Source of the DNA: Thermoanaerobaculia bacterium
GTDB lineage: Bacteria; Acidobacteriota; Thermoanaerobaculia; Gp7-AA8
Length of the DNA: 43,350 nucleotides
Assembly: GCA_051953135.1 (NCBI GenBank)
Contig: JBQCJC010000419.1
Coordinates: 1-43,350, forward strand
Direction of reading: 5' to 3'
In this document: piece after piece, positions 2,172 through 36,704 of the stretch
How positions within the stretch are numbered: position 1 is the stretch's first letter
Layout of the letters: each line of letters starts with the position of its first letter
The notes under the pieces: model-generated
Told to the model about the DNA's origin: nothing
What the model saw: the letters and a program-made list of their open reading frames with translations, nothing else
Databases searched by the model: none
Program-made: the position numbers and the translations under genes

Positions 2172-2236
2172 TGCGTTCCTATATCATTAACTAACTCATT
2201 CGTCCGGTAAACAGTTGCACCTTTGCGGAGAGAGGT
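2172..2236. promoter_or_regulatory. Divergent intergenic region between the ECF sigma gene and the TPR-CHAT gene; promoters presumed
   Basis: 65-bp spacer, locally AT-rich (tatatcattaactaactcatt) in a GC-rich window. It ends with the RBS GGAGAGAGG upstream of the 2237/2240 start. I could not identify a convincing -35/-10 or ECF GGAAC...CGTC pair by eye. Confidence 0.3.
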
Positions 2237-5584: not shown

Positions 5585-5587
5585 GGA

Positions 5588-6658: not shown

Positions 6659-6668
6659 CACCATTGAT

Positions 6669-6706
6669 AATGACGGCCTGCGCGGCGCAGGCCGTCATTT
6701 CTTTCG
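6669..6706. terminator. Perfect 15+15 nt palindrome followed by a T-rich run; probable (bidirectional) intrinsic terminator between convergent genes
   Basis: AATGACGGCCTGCGC-G-GCGCAGGCCGTCATT (6669..6699) followed by TCTTTC. It starts 11 nt after the stop of 5588..6658. Its right arm overlaps the stop codon (6695..6697) of the minus-strand caspase gene. Confidence 0.7.
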
Positions 6707-8560: not shown

Positions 8561-8644
8561 GACAACTCTCTCCGTTTCTCTCGTGTCATTACCCATGTCG
8601 CTAAAGACACGAAACGCACCCCGGGACATTGAAGAGAGGTCGAG
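8561..8644. promoter_or_regulatory. Divergent intergenic region between the two caspase genes; presumed promoter of the long plus-strand gene run
   Basis: 84-bp spacer with an RBS on both sides (GGAGAGAG on the minus strand; GAAGAGAGG for ATG 8645). It contains the inverted repeat CGTGTC...GACACG. No promoter hexamers are confidently assignable. Confidence 0.3.
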
Positions 8645-14680: not shown

Positions 14681-16111
14681 TTGTCTGATGTGAAATTCGC
14701 GGCAGCGCTTGCTTTTGTCCTGTTGTTCGCCGGCAGGCTTGCAGCAAAGGAAGGGCTGGACCTCGTCGTACTCCTCGATCGCTCCGCCAGCATGGCCAGC
14801 GATCCGCGCCTTCCCAGCCTGTTTCTGCAAATGACCGTCGATTTGCTGGCACGGAATGCAGCGGCATCTCACGTCGAGCATCGCCTCGCGATCGTCACGT
14901 TCAACCGCTCTGCCACCGTCTCGCTGGAGTTCACAACGGTTGACAGCGACAGTGCGTCGAATCTGCGCAAGCAAATTGCCGCCATGTCATTGCTTCCACG
15001 CGGAGAAACCGATCTGCTGAAGGCATTGACTCGGGCCGACGGTCTATTTCAATCGTTAGACTCGGCCACTGAACGTCGTCGAGCATTACTTCTGGTAACC
15101 GATGGTGTGCCCTATCTCCGCGGCGCGAATCTGCGTGAGTATCACGCGGACTTACGCGCCTACGTCGCTTCACACTTCGTCGGCGTCACGTTGAATGTTC
15201 TGCTCTCGGGTTCCAGCGGACTGTCACTCTTACGATTCTGGCGAACTCTGACGCCACTCGTTCAACATACCCGTCGCACCGTGCCGGACGTCATTGCTGC
15301 GGGCCACCTGGCGTTGAGCCGCCTCGCGGGAACACAGGTGTCGGAAAGCGCATCCACGGTGAAGCAAGGGGAGCCTGACGTTCTAATCGTGCCTCCCTAT
15401 CTCGATGTTGTTGTATTTGACGTGTTTCGCGCATCAAGCGAGATCACGGTGGAAATTTACCAGCCCGGTGCAACAACACCGTTGCGCAATGGAGTCGCGG
15501 GCGTCGAAGCATTCGGAATCGGCGATCTTCTTTCGACCGTGGTCGTGCCTCGCCCTATCGCAGGTGTCTGGAAAATCCGAAAAAGCCACGGTAATGCGCG
15601 CGTGAGAATTCTATCCGAGCAGTTCTTTCCGCGTGGACAACTACTGCACCCGCCGTCCAATACCACCATCGGCGAGGGACGCTTAACGATTATCTACAGC
15701 GTACGCAACGGCGACCACAGCGCACTGCGTGAATTAACGGAATATCCCATCGAGCTCCAGTTGACCCTCGGCTCACCCGATGGTGCACAGAAATCGATCA
15801 TCATGCTGCGCGACAAAGTCTATGGGCCCTCGACCTTTCGCAGCAGCACTCCGGAAGATTGTTCAATCACTGGTCGCTACTGGACAGACGTTCGCATCAC
15901 GACCACGGATCTCCACGGGCTTCGCTTCGAGCTCTTTCGCGATCGATGGTCAGGATTTACCGTTGCGGCTAAGGCACAACCGGCGAGCGCATTGCACCTC
16001 TCGCGACCGGCGATTACACGGGAATCGATTGATCTTCGCTGGATGCTCCTGACCTTGCCGGTCGGCGTGGTCATCGCGATCATCGTGATTACAAGAGCCC
16101 GCAAACCTTAA
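14681..16111 (+). CDS. Secreted von Willebrand factor A (vWA) domain protein with C-terminal TM anchor
   Basis: 476 aa, TTG 14681 or GTG 14690 start. Signal peptide VKFAAALAFVLLFAGRLAA. MIDAS DRSAS (nt 14777..14791) within LVVLLDRSASM, then GETDLLKAL and LLLVTDGVP. C-terminal TM WMLLTLPVGVVIAIIVI followed by TRARKP. Confidence 0.8.
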   Translation: MSDVKFAAALAFVLLFAGRLAAKEGLDLVVLLDRSASMASDPRLPSLFLQMTVDLLARNAAASHVEHRLAIVTFNRSATVSLEFTTVDSDSASNLRKQIAAMSLLPRGETDLLKALTRADGLFQSLDSATERRRALLLVTDGVPYLRGANLREYHADLRAYVASHFVGVTLNVLLSGSSGLSLLRFWRTLTPLVQHTRRTVPDVIAAGHLALSRLAGTQVSESASTVKQGEPDVLIVPPYLDVVVFDVFRASSEITVEIYQPGATTPLRNGVAGVEAFGIGDLLSTVVVPRPIAGVWKIRKSHGNARVRILSEQFFPRGQLLHPPSNTTIGEGRLTIIYSVRNGDHSALRELTEYPIELQLTLGSPDGAQKSIIMLRDKVYGPSTFRSSTPEDCSITGRYWTDVRITTTDLHGLRFELFRDRWSGFTVAAKAQPASALHLSRPAITRESIDLRWMLLTLPVGVVIAIIVITRARKP

Positions 16112-16121
16112 GCCGGCTGCC

Positions 16122-17846
16122 GTGTCTTTTTCATCGTCACGGGAGCAGACGGTGAGAGCGCAAATCGGGCCGTATGAGATCGAGCGGGTTCTCGGCGATG
16201 GTGGCACGGGCGTCGTTTACAAGGGACGCCATAAGTCACTCAATCGCTGGGCGGCCATCAAAACGCTGCTTCCGAAGAACTCCGGCCTAACGACACTGCG
16301 CAAGCGCTTCATCCACGAAGCACGCGCGCAGGCACACCTCAATCATCCGAATCTCGTTGCGGTGTACGACTTCATCGAAGATGCCGATACCGATGAGCTA
16401 TTCATCGCGATGGAGTATGTCGAGGGTGACACACTCGCGGAGGTTCTTGCACGTGCACCGAACAGCCGCCTCTCGATCGCCAGCGCATTGCCACTCTTTC
16501 GGCAAGTCCTCGAAGCGTTGAAGTTCGTTCATGGCAAAGGAATCATTCATCGCGACATCAAGCCATCCAATGTCATGGTCTGTGGATCCGTTGCGAAGCT
16601 TACGGATTTCAGCATCGCATTAATCCCCGACGCGCCCCGCCTGACCGGCCGAATGCAAATTCCGGGAACGCGGCTGTACATGTCGCCCGAACAGTTGGAA
16701 GGCGAGGAGGTCGATGCACGTAGCGACATCTACAGCGCCGCACTCGTTCTCTATCGAATGCTTGCCGGTTGCGACGCGTTCGACGTGAAAGAGTACATGG
16801 CACAGGTGCACGAGCGGCGCGCCCAGCCGCGAGACTTGCGTTTGCTCAACGACGAAATTCCCAAGGGCGTATGTACAGTGCTTTCGACTGCATTGAACCC
16901 GGACCGCCAGAAGAGATTCGCTTCCGCTGCCGCATTTCAGGATGCATTGATCGATGGAGAAGCGGTGTTTCTACAGATCCCAATCGATCGTCAGGAAGCA
17001 ACTCGTACGCACGTCCCGCCGGACGAGACCACAATCGTCAACATCCCAATTCAATCACACACGGAACAATCGTCCACGCCTAGGATGCTCGTATCCGGGG
17101 TGCTGCTTACCGGGACGTTACTCGCTGGAACGTATGCGTTCGTCGCTGTCGATCGACACCCGTCTCCACTGAACCCACCGGCTGTGCGCCAGCCACGGCC
17201 AGTGCAATTACCGGCCATTCCGCCGATCGATTTCACTACGACTACAGTGACACCGATCAAGTCAGTACCCGCTGCAACACCGAAACGTAAATCCATGCAA
17301 GGCATCGCTCCGGCAATGACGATACCCACGTTTAATTCGCGTAATGCCGAACTGGAACGCGAAGAGCGTCAACGCGGGGAGCGCGCGCGGTTACGTGAAG
17401 AAATCGGCGCTGCGCTCGATCGCGCGGAAGCGGCATTAGCCAGCGATCAATTCCTCGCTGCACACGAAGAGCTCGAGAGCGCAACGCAGAAAGCGCAAAC
17501 GCTGCCCGGCGAATTCTGGCAGGAGCGCGAGGAGATCGCACGAATGCGCCAGAGGATCCTGGCCGCGCAGGTGGAGGCGCGCACAAAGCAACAGAAAGAT
17601 GAGCTCTGGCGAAGTCGCATTGCCGAGATCCATCGCCATCTGCAGGCCGGTCGATTTCCTGAAGCGAAAAGCAGTGCCCAACTTCTCGCCGACGATCCCG
17701 CCGCGCCGGAACAGACGCGCGCGCAGGCTCGCGAGCTTTGCGAATCTGCCCGCAACGAACTGATGAACGCGTTCCAACAAACGCAAACGGGAGAAACGAC
17801 GAACAAGGTCCGGAAACCCTCGACACCGCCGAGGAAGAAATACTAG
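16122..17846 (+). CDS. Hanks-type Ser/Thr protein kinase, single TM, coiled-coil extracytoplasmic C-terminal region
   Basis: 574 aa, GTG start 10 nt after the previous stop. G-loop GDGGTGVVYKG, AAIK lysine, HRD (nt 16548..16556) within IIHRDIKPSNV, DFS in place of DFG, SPE in place of APE. TM MLVSGVLLTGTLLAGTYAFVAV, a Pro-rich linker, then a helical Glu/Arg/Ala-rich tail. Confidence 0.9.
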   Translation: MSFSSSREQTVRAQIGPYEIERVLGDGGTGVVYKGRHKSLNRWAAIKTLLPKNSGLTTLRKRFIHEARAQAHLNHPNLVAVYDFIEDADTDELFIAMEYVEGDTLAEVLARAPNSRLSIASALPLFRQVLEALKFVHGKGIIHRDIKPSNVMVCGSVAKLTDFSIALIPDAPRLTGRMQIPGTRLYMSPEQLEGEEVDARSDIYSAALVLYRMLAGCDAFDVKEYMAQVHERRAQPRDLRLLNDEIPKGVCTVLSTALNPDRQKRFASAAAFQDALIDGEAVFLQIPIDRQEATRTHVPPDETTIVNIPIQSHTEQSSTPRMLVSGVLLTGTLLAGTYAFVAVDRHPSPLNPPAVRQPRPVQLPAIPPIDFTTTTVTPIKSVPAATPKRKSMQGIAPAMTIPTFNSRNAELEREERQRGERARLREEIGAALDRAEAALASDQFLAAHEELESATQKAQTLPGEFWQEREEIARMRQRILAAQVEARTKQQKDELWRSRIAEIHRHLQAGRFPEAKSSAQLLADDPAAPEQTRAQARELCESARNELMNAFQQTQTGETTNKVRKPSTPPRKKY

Positions 17847-25286: not shown

Positions 25287-26552
25287 GTGACTTGTCCCTA
25301 CGCTGTGGCCAATTGCCGGCCGCCGGCCTCGCGCAACGCGCGAACATGCAAATGCGGCGGAATGCTCAAGCCGTGTTCGGCTTGTGAGACGCCGAATCGT
25401 GCGTTCGCAAACTTCTGCCGTTCCTGCGGTGAATCGCTGCCGTCAACGAACACAAACTGGACTGCCCATCGGGGCAATGGCCGCCGTCTCGGATTGAACC
25501 CCGTCACAGTCGGGTCGCCTTACCTCATAGACCGCGTACAAATGACGCTAAGGCTTGGCGATTCGTGCAGCAGCCTGCTCGGGTATGACGGACACCTCGT
25601 CGCCGTTTCAATCAAAGGACTCGTCGAAATTGTGGAACCGGCTCGTAATCAAAGCGTCTGCCGGTTTCAGGTCGCGGGCGCAGTCACGTCCGATCCCTGC
25701 ATTCACAACGGCGTCCTGTACGTCACCGCGGGGCGTCAGCTCGTGGCTTACGCATTATCGTCGTTAACGCTCAATCCTCCGCGCGTGCGTCCATTGTGGA
25801 GCATTTCGCTCGACGCAACCCCGGTGCATCCGCTTACGGTTGCCGGCGGGCGACTGTACGTGACTCTCGCAAATCGCGACGGGCGTGAAGTGCATGTTCT
25901 CGACGACCTGCTTCATCCAGCGAACACCCGCCTGCTGTACGGTGCGCGGCAAGTGAGCTGGGTCGCCGCCGATCCCCAAAGCACACGGGCCTTGTTCTTT
26001 AGCGATGACGGCGATGGCAACGTCCAATTGCATACTGTCGATCGCGACCTAATCACGAAACCTGTACTGGTCGACCGGCTTGGGCAATCGGCGATCGCGG
26101 TCATCGGCGATTCTGTCTTCGGCAGTTTCGGCGAAACGAATCGTCTGTACAGAATCGATTCGACATCGGGATCGATCGAAGAGCCGCTCGAAGACGACAC
26201 GCAGCTCTTTGCGCTTTCGGCGGATGGCGACGATGAATGGGATCGCGATGCGGTCTACGTCGACACCAGCGGCGTCTCATTTGTCCGGCCGGGCGTACGC
26301 GATACGTTCGAACCGCACGATCGCGCGACAAAGGGATCGCCACTGATGATTCGCGACAGCGCCGTCTTGATCGGGATGCAGGATGGACGCGTACGCATCT
26401 ATGACGTCGCGCATTTACCAAGTTACGAAACGTGGCTCGTCGCAGGCGGTTCTGCAATCACCGCGCTTGCGTCTTTCGAGTCGTATGTCGCGGCTGGCAA
26501 TACCAACGGATTCGTCGAAGTGCGACAAATTCGCGCGAGAGGGCGCTCGTAA
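25287..26552 (+). CDS. Zn-ribbon protein fused to a PQQ/WD40-like beta-propeller
   Basis: 421 aa, GTG 25287 (alternative ATG 25362). Cys clusters CKCGG..CSAC...FCRSCG. Repeated blade-like segments: GVLYVTAGRQLVAYAL, GGRLYVTLANRDGREVHVLD, AVLIGMQDGRVRIYDV, YVAAGNTNGFVEVRQI. Confidence 0.68.
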   Translation: MTCPYAVANCRPPASRNARTCKCGGMLKPCSACETPNRAFANFCRSCGESLPSTNTNWTAHRGNGRRLGLNPVTVGSPYLIDRVQMTLRLGDSCSSLLGYDGHLVAVSIKGLVEIVEPARNQSVCRFQVAGAVTSDPCIHNGVLYVTAGRQLVAYALSSLTLNPPRVRPLWSISLDATPVHPLTVAGGRLYVTLANRDGREVHVLDDLLHPANTRLLYGARQVSWVAADPQSTRALFFSDDGDGNVQLHTVDRDLITKPVLVDRLGQSAIAVIGDSVFGSFGETNRLYRIDSTSGSIEEPLEDDTQLFALSADGDDEWDRDAVYVDTSGVSFVRPGVRDTFEPHDRATKGSPLMIRDSAVLIGMQDGRVRIYDVAHLPSYETWLVAGGSAITALASFESYVAAGNTNGFVEVRQIRARGRS

Positions 26553-28327
26553 TGAGACCGCGCGCACTAGCGTTCGTCGTCCTCGGCTTTTTCGCTGCGA
26601 CCGCATCCGCGCAGCAGCTCACGCCGGGCATACCACTCGCCGTACGTATCCTGTACGACAACTCCGGAAGCATGTACCCGGGGTATCGGCCTCCAGGCAC
26701 GCCTGATCGCATGAGTCGACAGGAACTGGGTGCACGCTATTTTCATCAAACGCCACAATTCGCCGAATGGCTCAATGACTTTGTTCAACGCCAGACAATC
26801 GTCGATGGCGGAACGGTCGGTATGTGGACCTTCACGTCCTACGGATCCTTTTCTCCGTCCGACATTCAGGAAGTTCATCCGCCACGACCGATTGCAGAGT
26901 TCAATGTTCAGCGCGCGATTGCAGCATTTCCTCCTGAAACGGGTGATCGCACGTACCTGCGCGAAACGATCGGGGAGTTCACACGCGATTTCACGGGTCT
27001 GGTCTGGCTAATCACAGACAACATTGTCGAGAGCAATGCCGGTGAACCTGATGCCGGCGTACAGAACTTCTTTGAGTCACTCGCAAGCGGTCGGAATCTC
27101 CGCTCCGTTCATCTTTTCAAATACACATTCAATGATGGCGGGCTCTCCGCGGCAATCGCCGTATACGGGATTCTCGTCTCGAACAAGGACGTTCCGTCTA
27201 ACACGCTCGGCTTTTACGACGGCAAGTTCCGCCGGCTTGCGGATGCGAAACGAGTCCGTGGAACAGGCGATTTGTTTCCGGGTCACGAGTATCTCAAGCT
27301 GAAGGACCTGCATGTCGATCCGCTTCGTCCCGAGCTCCGCCTCGTGCTCGCCGAGGGCGACAATGGATCATTTCGGGAAGGACAAAGTGTAAAGCTCGAC
27401 GTTCAGGGCGCCATTCGCAGCTACCTGACACAGCACACAGTCACGGGCGGGCGATACGAGCTCGCGATTGCTTCGCCGTTTCAACCAGAAGACTGGGCGG
27501 CCAGGAACCTGGGCGCACAATCGCTGCAAGCCGGCCAATTTGATCCCGCGTCGGCCGACCTCGAGGACGAAATTCCTCCCAACGGCTCACGCTCCATCAA
27601 CGCGACGTTGCAATCACGCCAGCCGGTCTCGTTCTCGGTAAGTGGTCTTACACAATGGTTGCGACTCGCCTGGAATGGCGCGACGGTTCGATACAACGGC
27701 ACAGTGCGAATGTCGTTTACCGGAGTCACTGTGCGGCTCGAACAACGCCGCATGGCCGGCATCTTCGGAATCGACCACGCGACCTCGGCCTTCGAATTTC
27801 AGAACGTCAGCACTCTTCCGACGGTCACGCCGAGCGTGGTCCCAGTGAGCTTCGTATTGCGCACGGGACCGTCCAGGACCGCGATTCTCGTTTTGGTCCT
27901 CGCGATTCTCTGCGCACTCCTTACGTCGCTTGCGTTCGTCTTGTCCCGCAAGCGCATCTTTCGGATCGCTCTGTCCCGAGAACCGGAACGAGTGGTCGCG
28001 CTCGGCCCACTTCGCACTCATGACATCTTGCTCGATGGGCAGTGTATTGGCCGTCTATCGCGAGGAGTTTTCCGTGCCTACACGTTCAATCCGTCATCGG
28101 CTAACGATTGCACAATCAGTGCGACGCCGGAGCTCGACGTATGGGACGTAAAACTCGGCGATGGCACATTGCGCCGATTGTCGATCAAGGCAGAAGGCGG
28201 AGGACGCTCCAGCACTGTCAATCCGGGAGCGGCCAATCCTCGGGCCGCACCCGCGCCTCCTCCCCCATCGCCTAGAAACATCCCGCCTCCACTACCCGGC
28301 CGCTCGCCGCGGATCGGCAAACCCTGA
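26552..28327 (+). CDS. Secreted vWA-domain protein with TM anchor and cytoplasmic tail ending in a polyproline segment
   Basis: ORF 26432..28327, trimmed to ATG 26552 (TAATG overlap). Signal peptide MRPRALAFVVLGFFAATASA. MIDAS DNSGS (nt 26657..26671) within RILYDNSGSM, then VWLITDN. TM TAILVLVLAILCALLTSLAFVL followed by SRKR. Tail ends AAPAPPPPSPRNIPPPLPGRSPRIGKP. Confidence 0.75.
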   Translation: MRPRALAFVVLGFFAATASAQQLTPGIPLAVRILYDNSGSMYPGYRPPGTPDRMSRQELGARYFHQTPQFAEWLNDFVQRQTIVDGGTVGMWTFTSYGSFSPSDIQEVHPPRPIAEFNVQRAIAAFPPETGDRTYLRETIGEFTRDFTGLVWLITDNIVESNAGEPDAGVQNFFESLASGRNLRSVHLFKYTFNDGGLSAAIAVYGILVSNKDVPSNTLGFYDGKFRRLADAKRVRGTGDLFPGHEYLKLKDLHVDPLRPELRLVLAEGDNGSFREGQSVKLDVQGAIRSYLTQHTVTGGRYELAIASPFQPEDWAARNLGAQSLQAGQFDPASADLEDEIPPNGSRSINATLQSRQPVSFSVSGLTQWLRLAWNGATVRYNGTVRMSFTGVTVRLEQRRMAGIFGIDHATSAFEFQNVSTLPTVTPSVVPVSFVLRTGPSRTAILVLVLAILCALLTSLAFVLSRKRIFRIALSREPERVVALGPLRTHDILLDGQCIGRLSRGVFRAYTFNPSSANDCTISATPELDVWDVKLGDGTLRRLSIKAEGGGRSSTVNPGAANPRAAPAPPPPSPRNIPPPLPGRSPRIGKP

Positions 28328-28349: not shown

Positions 28350-28730
28350 ATGAACGGTCGTATCGCGGTCGGATTGTCTTCGCTCATATCGGCACTGCCC
28401 GCCATCGCTGCAGATCCGGCACCCGCACTCGAACAATCGGACAACATCGTGCTGCGCGGCGCCGGGATTTTTCTGGTGCTCGTAATGATCTGGTTCGTTC
28501 TCTACAAAGTCCTGTATCCCTTTCTGCTGCGGTATTACCGCGATGGGTTTTGTAAAACTGTCTTCTGGAATCTCTTTTCGCTTTATGCCCTCACCTGGAT
28601 TTTCGTGTCGTTGTACGTGGTGCTGGATTTCGGCTTCTACTGGGGATGGCTGCCATGGCTGGCCGCATTCCTCGGCGCATGGTGGTTGATTTCCGGCGTC
28701 GTGCTGTTGCTGCGGCGCGTGCCCGCCTAA
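28350..28730 (+). CDS. Small aromatic-rich integral membrane protein
   Basis: ORF 28161..28730, trimmed to ATG 28350 (GGAAAGGAG upstream). 126 aa. Signal-like MNGRIAVGLSSLISALPAIAA plus three hydrophobic segments (IFLVLVMIWFVLY, LFSLYALTWIFVSLYVVL, LPWLAAFLGAWWLISGVVLLL). Confidence 0.65.
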   Translation: MNGRIAVGLSSLISALPAIAADPAPALEQSDNIVLRGAGIFLVLVMIWFVLYKVLYPFLLRYYRDGFCKTVFWNLFSLYALTWIFVSLYVVLDFGFYWGWLPWLAAFLGAWWLISGVVLLLRRVPA

Positions 28731-28755: not shown

Positions 28756-31700
28756 ATGAACCTCGATCCCATTCTGCAGGCCAGTCTTCCACGCGTACTC
28801 GTGAACGACATGCCCGTCGGGCCAACGCTTCTCATTGGACTCGGCGGTACCGGCAAGGAAATTCTGTTGCGCCTGAGACGCATGATCGTCGAGCGCTACG
28901 GCGCACTCAACCGGCTTCCGTTTCTGAGATTCATGCATCTCGACACGGACAAGAATCAAACCGCGGCCGAGCAATACGATCTTCGCAGCGCGGATGACCC
29001 ACTGTATCGAGACGTGCAGTTCACCGTCGCCGAACGCCTGGATCTCACGATCACTGGTGGTACCGGACGCTATGTGCAGCATCTGAATAACTACCCGAAC
29101 GTGAAGCGATGGTTTCCGGCGAACGGGAAAATCGCCGAGCTCGGCGATCTCCACGAGGGCGCCGGCCAGGTACGAATCGCCAGCCGCCTGGGATTTTTCG
29201 ATGCGTCGAATCACCAGAAAATCACCGCGCGCCTCGAGCAGTGCCGCCGCGAATTGAGCGACGCGGCGATTCTTCAACAACGCGGATTCACGTTCAGCGC
29301 GGAACGCACTCGCGTCGTGATCGCGTCATCACTGGCTGGCGGCACGGGTAGCGGCACGTTCCTCGATATGGGATTCCTTGTCAGTCGCTATTTTCCCGAG
29401 GCCGAGCGCGTTGGGATTCTGTTGCTGCCGGCGTTTTTTACGGGATATCCCGGCGGAGAACGCGTGCGCGCCAACGGCTATGCGGCCCTCATGGAGCTCA
29501 ACCACTACACCTTCGGACATTCGTTCCACGCGGATTGGACAACACACGACAGCGCAGTGCTTCCTCCGCCACCGTTCAGCAGTACGTATCTGATCGACGG
29601 CCGCAATGAGGCGGGCCTGGCGATCAACTCCGGCGGCGGTAAGGAATATGACGCGTATCGAATGGTCGCCGAGTTTCTGTATCAGGACTACTCGATTGGT
29701 GCGTTCGCCGGAATGAAGCGCGCCACGCGAGTCAATCTCGAGCAATTCAATCTCAACGTCTATACCCACAATTTTCTCAATCAGGCATTGCGCAGTACCG
29801 AGGTGCACCAGAAGGCGATCGTCGGAGATTCCTATCCGTGCCGCTTCGGATCGTTTGGGCTGGCCACGCTGTCATTCCCAACAGAACGCGTACAGAACGC
29901 ATGTGCCTGCAAACTCGCGACGAAGATCCTCGATTACTGGCAAAAGAGCGCGCTCGATGATCCGCTCGAGCACCTCTTCATGAAAGTGCTCGCGGACGAA
30001 ACTGTTCAGTGCGCACAAGGACAATACGAGCGTCGTGACGGCGGCGGCATCATCGATCGCACGGATATCGAAGATGCCTTGATGATTCATGACGCTGGCA
30101 GCAGCAGGACATTCGATAGTTACCTGTGGCAGAAGGCACAGGCGCTTCGCGTCGAATTGCAGGCAACGCCCAATGGGGAGAAAGCGGCGTGCCTCCGCAC
30201 CCGACGTGCGGAGCTCGATCAGTATCTCGCCAAAGAGGATTCTGAGAATCCGGAGGAGTGGGGCCTCGGGATTCGCGTGCTCGACTCCAACATGCGCACG
30301 TATATCGAACGCGTGAAGGAGGCGATCGAAGTCAAGGCCGCGGAGCTGGCGGACAACCCACAGTACGGCGTCACCTATACGCTATCGCTTCTTCGTGAGC
30401 TGAAGGCGCTGCTGCGAAATGAAAACTTCCGCTATTTACCGTATTTCGACGCGCAAATCCCTCAGTGGCGCGATCGTGTCCAGTATTACTCGCATGCGCT
30501 CGACCAGATCCAACTCGACGTGGGCCGGCACGAGGCGCAATTTCTTTTCCGTTCTGCCGACCTCCATTGGGACTACGAAAAACTCGTGGGCGACGATGGC
30601 GATGAGGATCGCGGCGTTTTCTTCAATCACTTCTCCGCTCGTGTCGGAAAGCAGGTCGCGAAGCGCGGTCGCCAGATCTGCGAGGAATTAGACCGCTTCC
30701 TCGGCGCGGATCATAGCGGCGCCGACGGATTGCTGGGCCGCTACTACGAACTGCTCGTCGGATTTGCGCGCGTCAAAGAGCATCTGCAAAAGAAAGAATC
30801 GTATTTCGCACGGCCTGAGAAGTCGGAGCTCGTCGTCACATTGTTCCGCGACGGCGACGTTGAGGATTGGTATCGCACCTGGATCGGAGATAGCGTCCGC
30901 GAAGAGCAGACGCTCAATGCCGTCGGCAGCACCATTCTCGCGGATGTTTTTCAGGTACCAGGCGTCACGGCTGCATTCGAAAAAATTCAGCGCACTCCGC
31001 CCGAAACGGTCGAGGAAATGATCCTCACCAAATGTCGCGATTACATCATCGGACAGAAAAAGCAGCCCGAAGCTCTAACGATGCTCTTCGACGCCAATCG
31101 CATGAGCGAACGAGAGCGAATCGATAAGATCCGTCAGGTCTATCGATTGTCGAAGGTGTGGCTGGCCCCGGCGGAACAAGGCATTGAGCACACTGGTCTG
31201 CCCCCGGTGAAAACGCAGCAGAGGCCATTCCTGATTGGCTTCGACGACGCCACGAATCCGCAGCGCGTCGCGCAATTCAAGGAGCTGATCCAGAACGCGC
31301 AATCCCCCGGCGATACGCAGCCGAGTTTCCAGAACATCGGCGAACAGCACCGCGGCACGATCGTTTTCTACCACGAGCTGGCAGGTGTGCCCGCGTTCTA
31401 TCCAAGCTCCGTGACCGCGCCTCTGGGGATGCGCGCCGCATACAACGCGTTTCCCGAAAAGGAGGAACTGCATACTGACAAGAATCGCTTCCAGTTTGCG
31501 GATCTCATTCCGAAACAAACGGCCGAAGCGCGTCAGTACGCGGAATCATTGCAGGCGTTCGTCCTTTCCCGCGTTCTCGGGCTGCTGAACGTGCATGCGC
31601 TGCCGTCTGAAAGCGATCAACTCGCATACCGCTTCTCTTATCCACATGAGGACAGGCTGATCGTCACGGACGTGAATCTCGGCGGAGAAGCCCACGCCGT

Positions 31701-32676
31701 CGATTTTCTCTATCGCGACAGACGGAGCGATCACGAAACGCATCGACGCTATCTGATCAAGAAGGTCGAAAAAACCATTCAGCTTTTGCGCGAACAGAAA
31801 AAGCTGGCGGTTTACCGGCTCCTGCTCGAGTTCTACATCAAAAAGGTCTACCCCCCGCGAATTCTCTCCGCGAGCGGGATTCCCGACCTGACGATGATTC
31901 AGTATTCACCGGAATATGCGGTTCTGGACGAAGCGCGAACGCGCCTGACACAGATCATTGGGGACATCGCCGAACAGGAGAAATTCCGCGCACAGTTCCG
32001 GACGATGTTCAATTACGAAGTCGATCACGAGTTCACCTATCACGAGTTTGCCGTCGCATTGCAGCCGTATTGCAAAGTCGCCGGAAAGTATGCGGACCAG
32101 AAAGAAGACTCCGTCGTGCATGAAAGCACCGATTGGCGCGACATCTTCGCTCTCGATCCGGCGAAGCTCGATAAGAGCGCACAGAAAGATGTTCCCGCCG
32201 TTCGCTCCGCGGCTCCGTTTGGAGAGCGCCCCTGCCCGCGCTGTTCCAGACCGGTCGATCAACGAGCCATTTACTGTACGAGCTGTCGCAACACGTTCGC
32301 CGCGCATATCCCGTGTCCGCATTGTCAGGAAAAACGTGTTCCTGACGATTTGACGCTCTGTTGGAAATGCGGCGAGCCGATGCGCGAAGGCAGCGCGGTC
32401 GAATGCGCACAGTGCTTCACCTTCAGTGGGTTTGACGACGAATTCCCCTGCCCCAATTGTGGCTATGACCCGAAGTCAGGACCGCCCCAGCCAGTCTTCG
32501 GCTCCCCGATTCTGCCGGTAAAAGAGCGGCCTGCACCCGCGGAGCCTGTGAGCACGACGGCGAGCACGGCCGCGTCTGTCGCGTCGGCGGTACTCGTTCA
32601 ATGCGCGATTTGCGAATCCCATGTCCCGCCGGATGCCCATTGCTCGATTTGTGGTCATGACCTGGAGGCGAGGTGA
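28756..32676 (+). CDS. Giant tubulin/FtsZ-superfamily GTPase (bacterial 'tubulin-like' family) with four C-terminal Zn ribbons
   Basis: 1306 aa, AGGGAG 5 nt upstream. N-terminal Gly-rich loop LLIGLGGTGKE (nt 28837..28860). Tubulin signature GGTGSG (nt 29338..29355) within VVIASSLAGGTGSGTFLDMG. Large helical middle region. Cys-rich C-terminus (see the next feature). Confidence 0.82.
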   Translation: MNLDPILQASLPRVLVNDMPVGPTLLIGLGGTGKEILLRLRRMIVERYGALNRLPFLRFMHLDTDKNQTAAEQYDLRSADDPLYRDVQFTVAERLDLTITGGTGRYVQHLNNYPNVKRWFPANGKIAELGDLHEGAGQVRIASRLGFFDASNHQKITARLEQCRRELSDAAILQQRGFTFSAERTRVVIASSLAGGTGSGTFLDMGFLVSRYFPEAERVGILLLPAFFTGYPGGERVRANGYAALMELNHYTFGHSFHADWTTHDSAVLPPPPFSSTYLIDGRNEAGLAINSGGGKEYDAYRMVAEFLYQDYSIGAFAGMKRATRVNLEQFNLNVYTHNFLNQALRSTEVHQKAIVGDSYPCRFGSFGLATLSFPTERVQNACACKLATKILDYWQKSALDDPLEHLFMKVLADETVQCAQGQYERRDGGGIIDRTDIEDALMIHDAGSSRTFDSYLWQKAQALRVELQATPNGEKAACLRTRRAELDQYLAKEDSENPEEWGLGIRVLDSNMRTYIERVKEAIEVKAAELADNPQYGVTYTLSLLRELKALLRNENFRYLPYFDAQIPQWRDRVQYYSHALDQIQLDVGRHEAQFLFRSADLHWDYEKLVGDDGDEDRGVFFNHFSARVGKQVAKRGRQICEELDRFLGADHSGADGLLGRYYELLVGFARVKEHLQKKESYFARPEKSELVVTLFRDGDVEDWYRTWIGDSVREEQTLNAVGSTILADVFQVPGVTAAFEKIQRTPPETVEEMILTKCRDYIIGQKKQPEALTMLFDANRMSERERIDKIRQVYRLSKVWLAPAEQGIEHTGLPPVKTQQRPFLIGFDDATNPQRVAQFKELIQNAQSPGDTQPSFQNIGEQHRGTIVFYHELAGVPAFYPSSVTAPLGMRAAYNAFPEKEELHTDKNRFQFADLIPKQTAEARQYAESLQAFVLSRVLGLLNVHALPSESDQLAYRFSYPHEDRLIVTDVNLGGEAHAVDFLYRDRRSDHETHRRYLIKKVEKTIQLLREQKKLAVYRLLLEFYIKKVYPPRILSASGIPDLTMIQYSPEYAVLDEARTRLTQIIGDIAEQEKFRAQFRTMFNYEVDHEFTYHEFAVALQPYCKVAGKYADQKEDSVVHESTDWRDIFALDPAKLDKSAQKDVPAVRSAAPFGERPCPRCSRPVDQRAIYCTSCRNTFAAHIPCPHCQEKRVPDDLTLCWKCGEPMREGSAVECAQCFTFSGFDDEFPCPNCGYDPKSGPPQPVFGSPILPVKERPAPAEPVSTTASTAASVASAVLVQCAICESHVPPDAHCSICGHDLEAR
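32233..32661 (+). other. Array of four CxxC...CxxC zinc-ribbon modules at the C-terminus of the tubulin-like protein
   Basis: CPRCSRPVDQRAIYCTSCRN; CPHCQEKRVPDDLTLCWKCGE; CAQCFTFSGFDDEFPCPNCGY; CAICESHVPPDAHCSICGH. A Pro-rich spacer separates modules 3 and 4. Confidence 0.8.
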
Positions 32677-33455
32677 TCATGTCGCGCCGAAAGCCTGCTC
32701 ATGGCGCATTCGTAATCGCATTGTTGTTCGTCGCCGGCCTCTCCGTGACGGCTTTCGCCTTCGTCGATCTGCAATGGACGCATGCGATTTTCGTTAAAGG
32801 CGCCGGATTCGGGCGCACCGCGGCGAAACCTTCGTCTGTAGACCCGAAAAAGGTACAGAACCTTCGACAAAGCATTCTGAACGTCCGCGCTCAATGCAGC
32901 GGCGGCGAGAACACCGGCACAGGCTTTATCGTGAAATCGGGTTTCGTGGCCACGGCTGCGCACGTGTTAGGCGATCGTCAGTCCTGCACTGGTCCGATTC
33001 GGCTCGTCGATTACAAGGGTCTCGAGCACGTCGCACAACTCGAAGGAATCTCCGAGACCGATGATCTTGCGTTATTGACGATCCCCGACTCCACTCTTCC
33101 TCCATTGAAACTCGCGGACGCTTCGCGCTACGAGTCGTCAACGGACGTCGTGCGACTGGTGACGATCGGCTATCCGCTCGTAGGAAGCGGCGCATCGGAG
33201 CGCGACAGTGCGTCCATGTCAGGCGAAGGAAACCTTTCGCGATTCATTCGCGATCGCAATGTCTTCGTCACGTCCGGATTGAACCTCAACCCGGGTAACA
33301 GCGGCGGTCCGATTTTCGTGCGTGACAACTGGACCGTGCTGGGGATTGCGCGAGCGAAATTGCCTACAGACGTTGGCGAAGGCATTGGCTTCGTTGCATC
33401 GATTCGCGCATTCGAGAGTTTCTTTCGAGAGAAAACTGGACAGGAGCTGCGATGA
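32673..33455 (+). CDS. Membrane-anchored trypsin-like (S1/Trypsin_2-type) serine protease
   Basis: 260 aa, GTG 32673 (GTGA overlap) or ATG 32679. TM/signal AFVIALLFVAGLSVTAFAFV. Catalytic contexts: GTGFIVKSGFVATAAHVL (His), DDLALLTI (Asp), GNSGGPIF (Ser at nt 33300..33302). Confidence 0.85.
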   Translation: MIMSRRKPAHGAFVIALLFVAGLSVTAFAFVDLQWTHAIFVKGAGFGRTAAKPSSVDPKKVQNLRQSILNVRAQCSGGENTGTGFIVKSGFVATAAHVLGDRQSCTGPIRLVDYKGLEHVAQLEGISETDDLALLTIPDSTLPPLKLADASRYESSTDVVRLVTIGYPLVGSGASERDSASMSGEGNLSRFIRDRNVFVTSGLNLNPGNSGGPIFVRDNWTVLGIARAKLPTDVGEGIGFVASIRAFESFFREKTGQELR

Positions 33456-34513
33456 GTACCGCTCGTAGTGACACAAAGGCGGCCACGCTTCTCGTTCTTC
33501 TGATTGCCATTGGGCTCGCGCTGCTCACAATCCCGTGGTTTCTCACGCCGCCGGCGTTTCTGGAGCTCGCACTACGTGATGCCGTATTTGGCGCGGATTT
33601 GAGCAAACAGGTCATTCAGATTACTGACGACGCGACTGGCAAGTCGCTCCAGGCAAGCGTGTCGAAATCCGGCAATTCATTCATTGCTCACATCGGAAGG
33701 ATCAACAGCGGCAAAGGTACGTACACGGCGCGATTGACTGGCTACAAACCAGGCGTCGCACGCATCACCGCGGGCGCACTGGAACGAGTGCGAGTCCCGA
33801 TCGAGCTACGACCGACATTCGGGCGCGTCGAACTGTCTACCGTCAATGCAACGCTCAATGACACGGCAATCGCCGCAACTGTGAAAACGGGGCCGCAGAC
33901 GCTCTCTCAGGATTCGCCGCGCGTGCTCGTCTTCGATTTACCGCCCGGTAAGCATCGATTTACTGCCGACGCGAATGGATTTTGTCCGTCGGAGCGTGAA
34001 TTCATCGTCGTCGAAGGGAAGGTGACGAAAGGCGTCTTCCCTCTGTCACCGGATCTGACGAACGAGGAGCTCGCACGCTTCGTCCTCGGCTGGAGAAACG
34101 AGCCCCGCGATCTCGATGCCCATTTCATGAAATCGAATGCGTTCGGGATCCCGAACCCCGGCCATCTGTTCTGGCGACAGAAAACAGCGTGGTTCGCAAA
34201 TGGCGATGTCTTCGCGCGGCTCGACGTGGACGAGCTTTACCCGGGTCGATATGAAACCGTCACCGTCCGGGCGAACGCAGTCGGAGACTTCCGCTACCTC
34301 GTGCATCGTTTCCAGGGATTCGGGACGATCAACGACGCGGAGCCGATCGTACAGGTCTACACGAAGGGCTGTCAGATGCGAACGTTCACTCCGCCCCCGG
34401 CGTGTGCGGACGATGTATGGATCGTTGCAAACCTTCAATACAGCCACGGCAATCTTCAACTGAACGAGATTCGCACCTGCGAGCCCGCAACCGGTCCGGG
34501 CGTAATCAAATGA
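33452..34513 (+). CDS. N-terminally anchored protein with PEGA/carboxypeptidase-regulatory-like beta-sandwiches and a YfaP/DUF2135-like C-terminal domain
   Basis: 353 aa, ATGA overlap. TM AATLLVLLIAIGLALLTIPWFL. TYTARLTGYKPGVARI and KHRFTADANGFCPSEREFIV are PEGA-like. C-terminus FVLGWRNEPRDLDAHF...ARLDVDELYPGRYETVTV resembles the L.W....DLDLH...D...G.GPE pattern of DUF2135. This assignment is tentative. Confidence 0.6.
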   Translation: MSTARSDTKAATLLVLLIAIGLALLTIPWFLTPPAFLELALRDAVFGADLSKQVIQITDDATGKSLQASVSKSGNSFIAHIGRINSGKGTYTARLTGYKPGVARITAGALERVRVPIELRPTFGRVELSTVNATLNDTAIAATVKTGPQTLSQDSPRVLVFDLPPGKHRFTADANGFCPSEREFIVVEGKVTKGVFPLSPDLTNEELARFVLGWRNEPRDLDAHFMKSNAFGIPNPGHLFWRQKTAWFANGDVFARLDVDELYPGRYETVTVRANAVGDFRYLVHRFQGFGTINDAEPIVQVYTKGCQMRTFTPPPACADDVWIVANLQYSHGNLQLNEIRTCEPATGPGVIK

Positions 34514-34538: not shown

Positions 34539-35465
34539 GTGAAGAGTAAGAACCTGGAATGGCTTGGTGGGCGCTTTGCGCTTCCTGATTTTGTGGAAGC
34601 GGGGGCGCGCGATGTGATCTTGTGGCTGGAGATGCCGACTGGCGTCGTCGTCAGCGCGATGCTCGTGACGGGCGAGGTCGCATTCGCCGAGACGTTCAGC
34701 GACGCGACGATGAATCCGATGCACGGCATCGCGCGAAAGCCATCGCGCATTCGTGTGGCGAGTGAAACGCTCGCGAAGGAATTGCGCAAGGTGGCCGGCG
34801 AGATTCCGATCAGCGTCGGTCCGCTGCCGGAGCTCGATGCGGCCTTCGAAGATTTCGTCGCGATCCTCGGCGAGCAGGACGACGAGGAAGAAGAAGCAAG
34901 CTATCTCGCATCCGCCGACGCGCAAACGATTCGCGATTTCTTCGAGACCGCCGCGGCGTTTCATCGCGTCGCACCGTGGCAGTTCGTCTTCGACATGCAT
35001 CTGCTGCGCGTCGACATTCCGAAGTACAACATCGACGGTGGCGTGCTGACGATCATCGGCAGCGCGGGTGAAAGCACGGGCCTGCTGCTGTTCACCTCGA
35101 TGGAAGACTTTATCGCGTTCAACGAACAGGAACCGCGCGAGCCGCAGCTCGAACCGATTCTGCGATCGCTGTCGTATGTCGAACCGGACATGCTCTCCGA
35201 ATTGATGCGCGCGGAGATCGAAGAACACAAATGGCCGGTCGTGGATCCGAACGCGGTGCCGACGTACTTCGTCGTCGACGCGGATCGTGAGCCGCTCGAT
35301 CCGGATGAGCGCGACGTGAACGTGCTCACCGCGACGACGCGCGCGTTCCTCGCGTTCTTCGCGAAGCATCGCGACATCTTCAGCGACGACAATCCCGCGG
35401 TCGTACAGTTCTCGGCAACGGATGATCGCGATGTGACGGTCACGATCACCGCGCCATTCGTTTGA
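34539..35465 (+). CDS. Acidic cytoplasmic hypothetical protein
   Basis: 308 aa, GTG start 25 nt after the previous stop (start uncertain). No TM or signal peptide. Acidic stretch GEQDDEEEEASY. No recognised motif. Its stop abuts the stop of the convergent DUF2235 gene. Confidence 0.55.
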   Translation: MKSKNLEWLGGRFALPDFVEAGARDVILWLEMPTGVVVSAMLVTGEVAFAETFSDATMNPMHGIARKPSRIRVASETLAKELRKVAGEIPISVGPLPELDAAFEDFVAILGEQDDEEEEASYLASADAQTIRDFFETAAAFHRVAPWQFVFDMHLLRVDIPKYNIDGGVLTIIGSAGESTGLLLFTSMEDFIAFNEQEPREPQLEPILRSLSYVEPDMLSELMRAEIEEHKWPVVDPNAVPTYFVVDADREPLDPDERDVNVLTATTRAFLAFFAKHRDIFSDDNPAVVQFSATDDRDVTVTITAPFV

Positions 35466-36704
35466 TCACGACGTCGCAGGCACCGGCTTCACGCCTTTCG
35501 CACGGAGCTTGTCGATGTGCTTCAGCACATCGTTCGGCAGCGTGCCGAACGCGCTGAGATCGCGTTGCGCGGCGAGATATTCGATGACATTGTCCGGCCG
35601 GTAGTTCGCGTCGATGCGCATCTTCCTGAACACGGACTCGTCGATCTCGGTATTCGCACCGTGAATCACGCGTTTGCCTTTGCCGACGCGGAAGCGAATG
35701 CCTTCGATGATTTTGTACGAGAGTCCCCACGACTCGTACACTTTCGCCTCGACGTGCGCTTCGAATGGTTTCAGGAACTCGTTGTCGACGCGCAGGCCTT
35801 CCGCGGTCGCGCCTTCGAGAATCCACTGCAGCGCGATGTTCGCGAGACCGTCGGTCTGCAATCCGCCGCCGATGTTCGAGTGCACGCCCGGAAACCAGCG
35901 CTGCTGCATCGTCTGATCGGGGCGCGTTTCGGTCCAGATCTCGGGGCGAAAATCGTAGCGCTTCTCATCGACCGCGAGCGCTTGTCGCGCATGCCGCACG
36001 CACGGCGACGGCGCTTTCCCCGTGTGAAACGTGCGCCCCGCCTCGGATGTCTCCGCACCCGTTGCCGCGAACCGCGAGCCTAACGAAGCAACCGTGTCCC
36101 ACACGCCGAGGTAGCGAACGTTGACGGGATGGAAAACGATGGCGTAGCGATTGTTCGGATTCGCATTCGTCTCGCGCTTGCGATTGATTTGTTCGCGGAA
36201 CCGCTCGAACTCATTCGCATCGCCATGCGACTCGACGTAGTGACGGAAGAACAGCGGAAGGTAATACGCGTCGCGCTTCGCGGGCAGTCCCCCGCTCCAT
36301 TCGAGAAAGCGCGTGACCGCGCGCGCCGTCGCCGCTCCGCGACTGAATCCGAAGATGAACACTTCATCGCCGGGCTCGTGATTCAGCACGAGGAAATGCA
36401 GCGCGTCTTCGACATTGCCTTCGAATCCCGCACCGTACGCGCCGCCGAGAATCTTGTCGGAGCGATACAACAATCGATTCGCGAGCCCCGGATATCGCGC
36501 GAGCGATCCGACACCGATGTCGTAGTACGTGAGCTGCGGCCGGTCGGCGGAAGACAACACCGAACGACAAATCTTCAGCGTGTTCGTCGGACGCAGAACC
36601 TTGTCGCCCGTTTCGCGCTCGCTCTCATTCGCCGTACTGTTCCACGTCCCATCGAGACAAACGACGAGCCTTCGGCCCGCTACCGCAGTCGAGTTGTCGG
36701 TCAT
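35466..36704 (-). CDS. DUF2235-family alpha/beta hydrolase (T6SS Tle1-like phospholipase fold)
   Basis: 412 aa. LVVCLDGTWNS, YYDIGVGS, nucleophile elbow IFGFSRGAATARA (GxSxG), YLGVWDTVASLG, WFPGVHSNIGGG. No signal peptide. Lies 38 nt downstream of emrA on the same strand. Confidence 0.82.
   Translation of the reverse strand: MTDNSTAVAGRRLVVCLDGTWNSTANESERETGDKVLRPTNTLKICRSVLSSADRPQLTYYDIGVGSLARYPGLANRLLYRSDKILGGAYGAGFEGNVEDALHFLVLNHEPGDEVFIFGFSRGAATARAVTRFLEWSGGLPAKRDAYYLPLFFRHYVESHGDANEFERFREQINRKRETNANPNNRYAIVFHPVNVRYLGVWDTVASLGSRFAATGAETSEAGRTFHTGKAPSPCVRHARQALAVDEKRYDFRPEIWTETRPDQTMQQRWFPGVHSNIGGGLQTDGLANIALQWILEGATAEGLRVDNEFLKPFEAHVEAKVYESWGLSYKIIEGIRFRVGKGKRVIHGANTEIDESVFRKMRIDANYRPDNVIEYLAAQRDLSAFGTLPNDVLKHIDKLRAKGVKPVPATS

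Follow-up and report, generated by a model that had tools for sequence, protein, structure and literature searches.

A tubulin-like protein with a four-fold zinc-ribbon tail in a Thermoanaerobaculia gene cluster: a possible GTP-regulated scaffold of a trans-envelope system

What might a very large relative of tubulin and FtsZ do in a tightly packed bacterial gene cluster, in the company of chaperone, kinase, protease and membrane proteins? This question is raised by a stretch of 43,350 nucleotides (nt) from a Thermoanaerobaculia bacterium of the Acidobacteriota (assembly GCA_051953135.1, contig JBQCJC010000419.1, positions 1 to 43,350 of the forward strand), the whole of which is called the window here. 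The gene in question is an open reading frame (ORF) on the + strand at 28756..32676 (ATG start, 1306 codons plus stop), with a GGGAGA Shine-Dalgarno-like motif ~7 nt upstream. On the basis of current results, we are virtually certain that its product is a member of the 'FtsZ-like 1' (FtsZl1; Pfam Tubulin_2, PF13809) family, with four zinc ribbons in its domain layout. It may serve as a GTP-regulated, self-assembling cytoplasmic scaffold of a trans-envelope conflict or stress system, a reading to which we give a probability of about 0.5.

The protein matched PF13809 with E = 3.7e-63 (214.3 bits against a cut-off of 27) over aa 25-392, with profile positions 1-355 of 356 aligned. The classical Tubulin/FtsZ model (PF00091) scored 12 bits, below its cut-off of 33, and a Pfam scan found no FtsZ_C domain. 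None of the PADLOC or NCBIfam models matched the protein. A phmmer search of the full protein against PDB sequences returned nothing at E <= 10, and a profile of 70 homologues gave weak zinc-ribbon matches only (L32, eL37 and YfgJ). Homologues were numerous: 947 were found for the full protein, of which the best 120 were mostly ~1300 aa long with the same architecture, and the N-terminal domain alone matched 4233 clusters at 50% identity with E <= 1e-3 (244 with E <= 1e-30). The sequence contains no transmembrane or hydrophobic segment, which fits a cytoplasmic location and rules out a transmembrane tubulin. Conservation is given below either within the clade (70 homologues, identity down to 38%) or family-wide (125 diverse family representatives).

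Tubulin_2 was described in 2010 by Makarova & Koonin as FtsZl1; in their account, the operons contain vWA proteins and kinases, T6-H7-T7 was not recognisable from sequence, and membrane remodelling was the suggested role (PMC2875224). Later reviews considered the function of the family unknown and noted that filaments might not be formed (PMC3160578; PMC9871819). This is the large and uncharacterized family of bacterial tubulin-like proteins that an earlier note on this DNA, made from the sequence alone, had mentioned (PMC2875224, PMC9871819, PMC3160578). The novelty of the find is lower than that note implied, since the 2010 description already covered the family together with its vWA/kinase context, and Pfam and two comparative-genomics papers list the family. 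Apparently undescribed so far are the zinc-ribbon-tail clade itself, its fixed trans-envelope gene set without DO-GTPase or GAP1, and the T6/H7/T7 register with a non-acidic T7 that is proposed here. The protein upstream of its tail is laid out as follows.

28756..32676, + strand: full protein, 1306 aa, FtsZl1 / Pfam Tubulin_2 family, zinc-ribbon-tail clade
28828..30075, + strand: tubulin/FtsZ-like GTP-binding domain, aa 25-440 (Pfam, AlphaFold, Foldseek)
30112..31149, + strand: long helical region, aa 453-798 (AlphaFold DSSP), the FtsZl1 'coiled-coil' region of PMC2875224
31228..32175, + strand: mixed alpha/beta region, aa 825-1140 (AlphaFold DSSP), with motifs ELAGVPAFYPSS and HTDKNRFQF

An AlphaFold2 model of aa 1-480, built from the 70-sequence alignment, had a mean predicted local distance difference test score (pLDDT) of 75 and a predicted template modelling score of 0.67. 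When this model was compared with the PDB by Foldseek, the best match was CetZ (3zid, E = 6e-7). FtsZ, alpha, beta and gamma tubulins and TubZ were also matched, at a probability of 1.0 and over ~290-320 aligned columns. There were 428 matches at E <= 0.001, and the top 50 were all CetZ, FtsZ, tubulins or TubZ. The Rossmann-like tubulin GTP-binding fold, which the earlier note had proposed to look for in the N-terminal domain, is thus found in the model. Together with the Tubulin_2 match and the conserved T1-T5 segments, the matches to CetZ, FtsZ, gamma-tubulin and TubZ support membership of the tubulin/FtsZ superfamily, as had been suggested from the sequence. The segments of the nucleotide-binding site are listed here.

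28837..28857, + strand: T1 loop GLGGTGK, aa 28-34, aligned to GVGGGGG of E. coli FtsZ
28936..28950, + strand: T2-like HLDTD, aa 61-65, aligned to VNTD of FtsZ
29155..29175, + strand: T3-like EGAGQVR, aa 134-140, aligned to GAGAN of FtsZ
29335..29355, + strand: T4 signature AGGTGSG, aa 194-200, aligned to GGGTGTG of FtsZ
P225 ... G233: T5, followed by H5 at aa 234-252 (N240, E247), from column statistics and model secondary structure
29587..29688, + strand: proposed T6 (YLIDGRNE, N284) and helix H7 (aa 297-311; Y301, E306)
29716..29748, + strand: proposed T7-equivalent KRATRVNLEQF, aa 321-331

The residues of T1-T5 were invariant in the 70 homologues and conserved in the 125 representatives. 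The invariant ones include G28, G30, G31, G33 and K34 in T1 (its glycines 88-99% conserved family-wide), D63, T64 and D65 in T2, and G135, A136, Q138 and R140 in T3 (82-99%); G195-G198 of T4 were conserved in 100% of the representatives. The GAGQ of T3 is similar to the GAGNN motif found in tubulins at this place. Both loops that the earlier note had pointed out lie exactly where it put them, namely GGTGSG at aa 195-200 (nt 29338-29355, in the context SSLAGGTGSGTFLDMG) and IGLGGTGKE at aa 27-35 (nt 28834-28860). Further downstream, N284, Y301, E306 and N327 are separated by 17, 5 and 21 residues, compared with 17, 5 and 20 for N165, F182, D187 and N207 of E. coli FtsZ, and because of this near-equal spacing an FtsZ-like T6-H7-T7 register is suggested. 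N284 and Y301 were invariant in the clade; family-wide, N284 was conserved in 81%, position 301 was F or Y, and position 306 was E or D in 85%. The secondary structure of the model places a strand at 276-280 and a helix at 297-312 (S6/T6, Y278-N284; H7). In the candidate T7 segment, K321, R322, R325, N327 and L328 were invariant in the clade and N327 was 97% conserved family-wide.

With respect to the remainder of the protein, the expectation of about 1000 further residues of mostly helical sequence held for aa 453-798 and did not hold for aa 825-1140, which form a mixed alpha/beta region in the AlphaFold model. The model of aa 441-1306 had a pLDDT of 82.7, and Foldseek found no significant match to it in either PDB or the viral predicted structures of BFVD (best E = 0.027, probability 0.15). 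The alpha/beta region was detected by single-sequence phmmer in 56 of the 125 representatives and is therefore a family-wide module. With the helical region, it makes up ~700 family-specific residues. Conservation is strong in two motifs of this region (window 31375-31497), ELAGVPAFYPSS at aa 874-885 and HTDKNRFQF at aa 906-914. They could mark a functional site in a region that has no structural relative.

The most distinctive part of the protein is its tail.

32233..32460, + strand: three packed Cys4 ribbons, aa 1160-1235
32233-32286, + strand: ribbon 1, CxxC-N10-CxxC, aa 1160-1177
32314-32370, + strand: ribbon 2, CxxC-N11-CxxC, aa 1187-1205
32404-32460, + strand: ribbon 3, CxxC-N11-CxxC, aa 1217-1235
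32461..32601, + strand: disordered Pro/Ala-rich tether, aa 1236-1282 (AlphaFold pLDDT < 50)
32602-32652, + strand: ribbon 4 (terminal), CxxC-N9-CxxC, aa 1283-1299

Four ribbons had been counted in the earlier note, and four were found, with spacers of 10, 11, 11 and 9 residues instead of the 10-17 given there; the stretch begins at 32233 as described, and its last Cys codon ends at 32652, not 32661. Pfam DZR matched aa 1160-1206 with 27.5 bits. The features of the ORF are far beyond chance, because its PF13809 match has the E-value given above, all 16 ribbon Cys columns are at least 90% conserved in the 70 homologues, 16 of the 25 Cys of the protein fall in the ribbons, and all four ribbons occur in 111 of the 118 full-length close homologues. 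Among 116 homologues, the linkers between ribbons 1-3 were near-fixed (median 9 and 11 residues), the tether before ribbon 4 varied from 33 to 170 residues and was rich in P/A/E/G, and ribbon 4 always lay 4-18 residues from the C-terminus. By comparison, any C-terminal ribbon was present in only 12 of 130 diverse full-length representatives, and the tail was found in none of ~60 metagenomic loci of other FtsZl1 clades. The ribbon-tail clade occurs in Acidobacteriota, Aminicenantes and Desulfonema.

Two roles had been proposed for the ribbons, recruitment of ribbon-bearing operon partners and binding of nucleic acid. The tail is acidic (isoelectric point 5.5, with 13 K+R and 18 D+E) and nucleic-acid binding is therefore disfavoured. 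A relation to the zinc-ribbon partners in the operon is plausible, because the Hsp70 and the propeller protein described below keep their ribbons in every locus checked and because the tail is confined to the clade with this operon. In FtsZ, TubZ and tubulin, the C-terminal tail binds partner proteins. By analogy, the linker and conserved terminal element found here may resemble such tails.

The tubulin gene is part of a + strand run of 13-14 genes (14027/14681 to 34513) in which neighbouring genes overlap or are separated by gaps of <= 28 nt; the gene cluster is translationally coupled. Its other members are given below.

14681-16111, + strand: exported vWA protein (Pfam VWA_2, 1e-9; metal-ion-dependent adhesion site (MIDAS) DRSASM)
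16122-17846, + strand: membrane Ser/Thr kinase (Pfam Pkinase, 1.8e-46; catalytic motifs intact)
17857-18579, + strand: Gly-zipper lipoprotein
18579-19754, + strand: tail-anchored 391-aa protein
19751-22600, + strand: 949-aa Hsp70 with N-terminal zinc ribbon and Ig-like domains (Pfam HSP70, 4.3e-33; DUF1573)
22597-24021, + strand: divergent actin/Hsp70-fold protein of the nucleotide-binding-domain (NBD)-only type, 474 aa (weak MreB matches)
24018-25274, + strand: membrane-anchored GrpE-like protein, 418 aa, with C-terminal GrpE-like beta domain
25287-26552, + strand: zinc-ribbon and beta-propeller-like protein, 421 aa (Pfam DZR and PQQ_2, both below cut-off)
26552-28327, + strand: exported vWA-like protein, 591 aa, with transmembrane segment and conserved cytoplasmic tail
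28350-28730, + strand: small polytopic membrane protein, 126 aa, directly preceding the tubulin gene
32673-33455, + strand: membrane-anchored trypsin-like serine protease, 260 aa (Pfam Trypsin_2, 1.2e-17)
33452-34513, + strand: membrane-anchored PEGA / CarboxypepD_reg-like beta-sandwich protein, 353 aa

The intergenic gaps around the first two genes (14681..17846) are 11 nt, and the order of the Gly-zipper lipoprotein and tail-anchored protein genes is repeated in the related loci L005, L006, L011, L012 and L015. The Hsp70 matched DnaK and HscA models and has the motifs DFGTTNS and DYGGGTLD; its zinc ribbon is conserved in orthologues. The NBD-only protein has a syntenic counterpart in loci of the clade, and its N-terminal IDIGGR resembles a phosphate-1 motif. 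All of the seven GrpE-like orthologues (7/7) matched Pfam GrpE in the C-terminal beta domain (best E = 3.2e-6), and the sequence shows hydrophobic segments at its N-terminus, a signal or transmembrane region. The protein may thus be a nucleotide-exchange factor that is tethered to the membrane and dedicated to the Hsp70 of the operon. The ribbon of the zinc-ribbon/propeller protein was conserved in 6 loci. The product of 26552-28327 had no match to any Pfam or PDB profile, and its assignment as vWA-like rests on a MIDAS-like pattern (D36xS38G39S40, T134 and D156, all invariant). The protease gene overlaps the tubulin stop codon by 4 nt, and its product has the His, Asp and Ser motifs TAAHV, DDLALL and GNSGGP, so that the catalytic triad is intact. 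For the last protein of the run, a PEGA match was obtained with the Desulfonema orthologue. Signal and anchor segments, together with the positive-inside pattern, suggest that the protease, the PEGA protein and the vWA domains face outward; the tubulin, the Hsp70 set and the zinc-ribbon propeller are predicted to be cytoplasmic.

Several candidates were looked for and not found. No P-loop GTPase (Walker A motif, Pfam) or OmpA protein was present among the operon products. No DO-GTPase could be identified in 14027-34513, either by a P-loop motif or by a Pfam match. GAP1 had no Pfam match at E <= 0.01 among the scanned operon products, nor at E <= 10 among otherwise unannotated products. The cluster has no TubR-like, centromere, replication or nuclease genes, and an Rfam scan of the window found nothing. 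Promoter and terminator scans of the window gave results below shuffle expectation and were uninformative.

To what extent this gene set is kept was analyzed in 22 non-redundant loci of the zinc-ribbon clade, from Acidobacteriota/Thermoanaerobaculia, Aminicenantes, a 'Deltaproteobacteria' metagenome-assembled genome and Desulfonema magnum, and partners were counted only where the flanking sequence sufficed. The small membrane protein gene was present in 17 of 20 loci with room, the protease gene in 17 of 19 and the vWA-like gene in 14 of 16; the genes for the zinc-ribbon propeller, the GrpE-like protein and the Hsp70 were each found in 12 of 14, and that for the PEGA-like protein in 12 of 16. 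None of these partners was detected in the ~60 loci of other FtsZl1 clades, barring weak Hsp70 matches in four loci, one weak trypsin match and a kinase domain in three. Desulfonema has kept only a five-gene core composed of the vWA-like, small membrane protein, tubulin, protease and PEGA-like genes. In D. magnum (CP061800.1, L001 5250-10000), ~5 kb are inserted between the small membrane protein and tubulin genes, comprising an SLT-domain gene and a gene with a weak DUF6431 match, and the Hsp70 module is absent within 10 kb. In L011 (13921-15095), a relative of 71% identity, tblastn found no trypsin-like gene, and the PEGA-like gene follows the tubulin gene almost directly.

How could such a module work? 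We propose a mechanism that is tentative and whose chances we would put slightly below even. GTP binding would drive self-association of the tubulin domain beneath the membrane, and the tethered zinc-ribbon tail would dock partners in the manner of FtsZ, TubZ and tubulin tails; likely docking partners would be the cytoplasmic tail of the vWA-like protein, the small membrane protein, the zinc-ribbon Hsp70 and the zinc-ribbon propeller. Remodelling or disassembly could fall to the Hsp70 together with the NBD-only and membrane GrpE-like proteins. Input might come from the kinase and vWA proteins and output from the exported protease, and the trypsin-like protease together with the PEGA and vWA ectodomains would form an outward-facing arm. 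Rather than cell division, the most likely role of the module is in conflict of a threshold type (immunity or cell death) or in envelope stress. The window has conflict-type neighbours, namely an extracytoplasmic-function (ECF) sigma factor, a caspase and two CHAT proteins, and in the flanks of related loci there are a caspase, nSTAND-WD40 proteins, FGE-sulfatase domains and vWA-FHA proteins with a kinase.

A number of points weigh against this reading. The target-normalised TM-scores of the model to FtsZ and CetZ were only ~0.44; because of these values the C-terminal 'activation' half of the domain is not established, and it is the GTP-binding half that the model makes secure. Alignment by hhalign of the clade or family profile to a single E. 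coli FtsZ sequence was reliable over T1-T4 only. The homologues retrieved with E. coli FtsZ were all 98-100% identical to it and thus of no use for an FtsZ profile. The T7-equivalent segment was modelled with low confidence (pLDDT 40-59) and residues 334-376 poorly (pLDDT < 50). The catalytic acid of the T7 loop, for which the earlier note had suggested a check, was not found: none of the positions 328-333 has a conserved acid in the 70 clade members or the 125 representatives. Position 329, equivalent to D209 of FtsZ, is variable (V, E, K, A), position 332, equivalent to D212, is non-acidic (N, I, T, or L, K), and an Asn or Gln occupies position 330 in 67 of the 70 members of the clade. Thus, a T7-like loop is probably present in which basic and amide residues stand in place of the canonical acid. 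For the putative polymerising or switch GTPase of the earlier note, the lack of such an acid makes it unlikely that hydrolysis is trans-activated in the canonical manner of FtsZ, and canonical polymerisation-coupled GTP hydrolysis might not operate. In addition, membrane topologies were judged by eye from the sequence, the tubulin is absent from PADLOC and no defence phenotype is known, and no experimental study of FtsZl1/Tubulin_2 was found in the literature. Finally, the homologue in L004 stands alone, without the cluster, yet has kept all four ribbons; therefore, the ribbons need not bind operon partners.

These points bear differently on the alternatives. If the absence of T7 acids, which extends across the whole family, is taken at face value, the protein could be a non-polymerising GTP-binding switch or a pseudo-enzyme, that is, a monomer/dimer switch or a nucleotide-independent scaffold that never forms protofilaments. 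The missing acids make this a serious alternative for molecular behaviour, albeit a rather improbable one. The failure of Makarova & Koonin to identify T6-H7-T7 and the statement of reviews that filaments may not be formed (PMC2875224, PMC3160578) agree with it, as do the poorly modelled region after H7 and the large C-terminal domains, which could block longitudinal contacts. However, the 97% conservation of N327 beside invariant K321, R322 and R325 argues for a conserved inter-subunit or nucleotide-facing surface, and the Foldseek alignments cover nearly the full length of FtsZ and CetZ. To our knowledge, every characterised member of the tubulin superfamily self-associates head to tail, which also counts against such a switch.

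With regard to function, the main competitor is a housekeeping membrane-remodelling or cytoskeletal machine, following the idea of Makarova & Koonin, in which a filament would serve vesicles, envelope shaping or surface structures and have no conflict role. We consider a regulated conflict or stress response (about 0.5) more likely than this alternative, which appears unlikely without being far-fetched. That most cluster components are membrane-anchored or exported, that FtsZl1 occurs in a vWA, kinase and membrane-protein context (PMC2875224), that the cluster is kept across phyla in a stable gene order unlike a fast-shuffling defence locus, and that PADLOC has no match for the tubulin are all in its favour. 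On the other hand, the distribution is patchy, several loci are flanked by caspase, CHAT, STAND and FGE-sulfatase genes, a dedicated protease and Hsp70/GrpE set is typical of the conflict systems in PMC7159879, and no lipid-binding or membrane-deforming domain was detected. Much less probable is a tail that binds nucleic acid, as in a DNA- or RNA-associated tubulin such as a segregation motor of the TubZ or PhuZ type. Zinc ribbons are common in nucleic-acid-binding proteins, and weak profile matches to ribosomal L32, eL37 and a zinc-ribbon RNA-binding protein were seen (E = 0.5-6). However, these PDB matches are not significant, the tail has the acidic composition given above, the cluster lacks any TubR-like, centromere, replication or nuclease gene, and all other cluster products are membrane or chaperone proteins. 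A nucleic-acid-binding tail was rejected on the acidity of the tail. Least probable of all, to the point of being negligible, is a paralogue of FtsZ that acts in cell division: the fold of the superfamily and motifs T1 and T4 are in common, whereas the PF00091 score lies below cut-off, FtsZ_C is lacking, the protein has 1306 aa and no dcw-cluster context, and the phyletic distribution is patchy (PMC2875224, PMC9871819). Division FtsZ was rejected on architecture and context.

Within the conflict or stress reading, a bolder and doubtful version is that the locus encodes the first polymer of the tubulin superfamily to serve as a signalling platform in immunity or cell death, with the tubulin as GTP switch and no DO-GTPase. 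Assembly under the membrane would follow triggering of the extracellular vWA/PEGA sensors, the kinase or both. The non-canonical T7, with Asn and Lys/Arg/amide for Asp/Glu, might set a slow hydrolysis timer, and the dedicated membrane-tethered Hsp70/GrpE set would reset a platform coupled to the exported trypsin-like protease as executioner. The closest analogy would be integrin-cytoskeleton outside-in signalling combined with inflammasome-like thresholding.

FtsZl1/Tubulin_2 is a very large branch of the tubulin superfamily. The present locus delimits a conserved and well-defined sub-system, in which a tubulin with a distinctive putative docking tail is accompanied by nine to ten fixed partners and at least one carrier (Desulfonema magnum) is in culture, and it provides residues for mutation (N284, Y301, E306, K321, R322, N327, N/Q330 and the 16 ribbon cysteines). 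The question of whether FtsZl1 proteins form filaments, and for what purpose, thereby becomes experimentally approachable. If the conflict-system reading is true, a tubulin-based assembly would be added to the known prokaryotic immune platforms.

The surroundings of the operon were also recorded. Upstream of it, an island of conflict- or cell-death-type genes extends over window 892-14082, and other genes lie downstream.

1620-2171, - strand: ECF sigma factor, adjoining a 243-aa ORF at 892-1623 (-)
2237-5584: CHAT protein
6695-8629, - strand: FG-GAP protein
8645-10888: caspase-domain protein
10720-14082: TPR-CHAT protein
34539-35465, + strand: DUF6930/DUF7309 protein, adjoining the following gene
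35466-36704, - strand: Tle1-like phospholipase (PF09994, E = 4e-65)

The phospholipase and the DUF6930/DUF7309 protein may be an effector/immunity-like pair unrelated to the tubulin operon. Further downstream (36743-40853, - strand) is a tripartite efflux set with HlyD-family, MFS and outer-membrane OEP genes; the ORF calls at 36743-38875 and 37939-39534 overlap by ~900 nt, and at least one start codon is probably over-extended. In related loci, genes for FGE-sulfatase, nSTAND1/WD40 and two vWA-FHA proteins with a Ser/Thr kinase were observed (L002 16798-24206, L008 17629-20073 and L009 16522-24125), and such domains are typical of the conflict systems described in PMC7159879. In L004 (9559-14449, protein P0072, in an 8.8-Mb genome), a caspase (Peptidase_C14) fragment precedes the tubulin and is possibly fused to it.

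With which known system does the locus agree best? The protein shares with FtsZ the GTP-binding fold, the T1-T6 loops, in the register proposed here the distances between T6 Asn, H7 aromatic residue, H7 acidic residue and T7 Asn, and, by a possible analogy, a disordered linker followed by a conserved terminal partner-binding element. It differs in the lack of FtsZ_C, in the non-conservation of T7 acids D209 and D212, in ~900 extra residues, in the absence of a division (dcw) cluster context and in an identity of only ~12-16% in structural alignment. CetZ 3zid was the best structural match, and TubZ and alpha, beta and gamma tubulins were matched at a probability of 1.0, whereas TM-scores to CetZ, TubZ/PhuZ and tubulins were only ~0.3-0.46. 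Neither a TubR/tubC or phage context nor a tubulin_C domain is present, and the C-terminal architecture is unrelated to that of CetZ, TubZ/PhuZ and tubulins. A TubZ-type segregation motor was rejected on architecture and context (no TubR-like gene, acidic tail).

The agreement with FtsZl1 is much closer. The full-profile Pfam match, the length of more than 1000 aa, the order of an N-terminal FtsZ-like GTP-binding domain, a long helical region and a C-terminal globular region, and the operon with vWA proteins, a Ser/Thr kinase and many membrane proteins are all in common. Differences are the four-zinc-ribbon tail, which is missing in most of the family, the presence of Hsp70, NBD-only Hsp70, GrpE-like, trypsin-like protease and PEGA-like genes in the cluster, and the lack of frequent, non-universal partners (a divergent P-loop GTPase and an OmpA-family protein). 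The text of PMC2875224 mentions none of these five additional components, nor Acidobacteria.

The second system to be compared is the GTPase-centric conflict systems of Kaur, Burroughs, Iyer & Aravind (2020), which have a constant core of DO-GTPase and GAP1 (PMC7159879). There, the DO-GTPase is a TRAFAC GTPase, often with N-terminal zinc ribbons, and GAP1 consists of GAP1-N1 or N2, GAP1-M and GAP1-C. The GAP1-N2 type carries one of three 'non-overlapping' themes: tubulin; HSP70 and GrpE with or without NBD-only HSP70; or kinase and vWA (PMC7159879). These themes, the tubulin one in particular, were placed in Firmicutes and Actinobacteria (PMC7159879), and no tubulin entries were found in the supplementary text of PMC7159879. 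The likeness comprises tubulin with C-terminal helical domains, extracellular vWA proteins with transmembrane segments, HSP70 with GrpE and NBD-only HSP70, kinase with vWA, zinc ribbons on an NTPase, PEGA and trypsin accessory domains and a membrane-proximal organisation. In contrast with those systems, all three themes occur here in one operon, in Acidobacteriota, Aminicenantes and Desulfobacterota, the zinc ribbons are on the tubulin and not on a DO-GTPase, and the defining DO-GTPase and GAP1 genes are absent. The operon therefore lies outside the DO-GTPase-GAP1 systems, yet it shares their parts list and is a member of FtsZl1. The tubulin-like protein is the only GTPase in this arrangement, and because this sole GTPase carries zinc ribbons of the DO-GTPase type, it would appear to be both the switch and the assembly element here.

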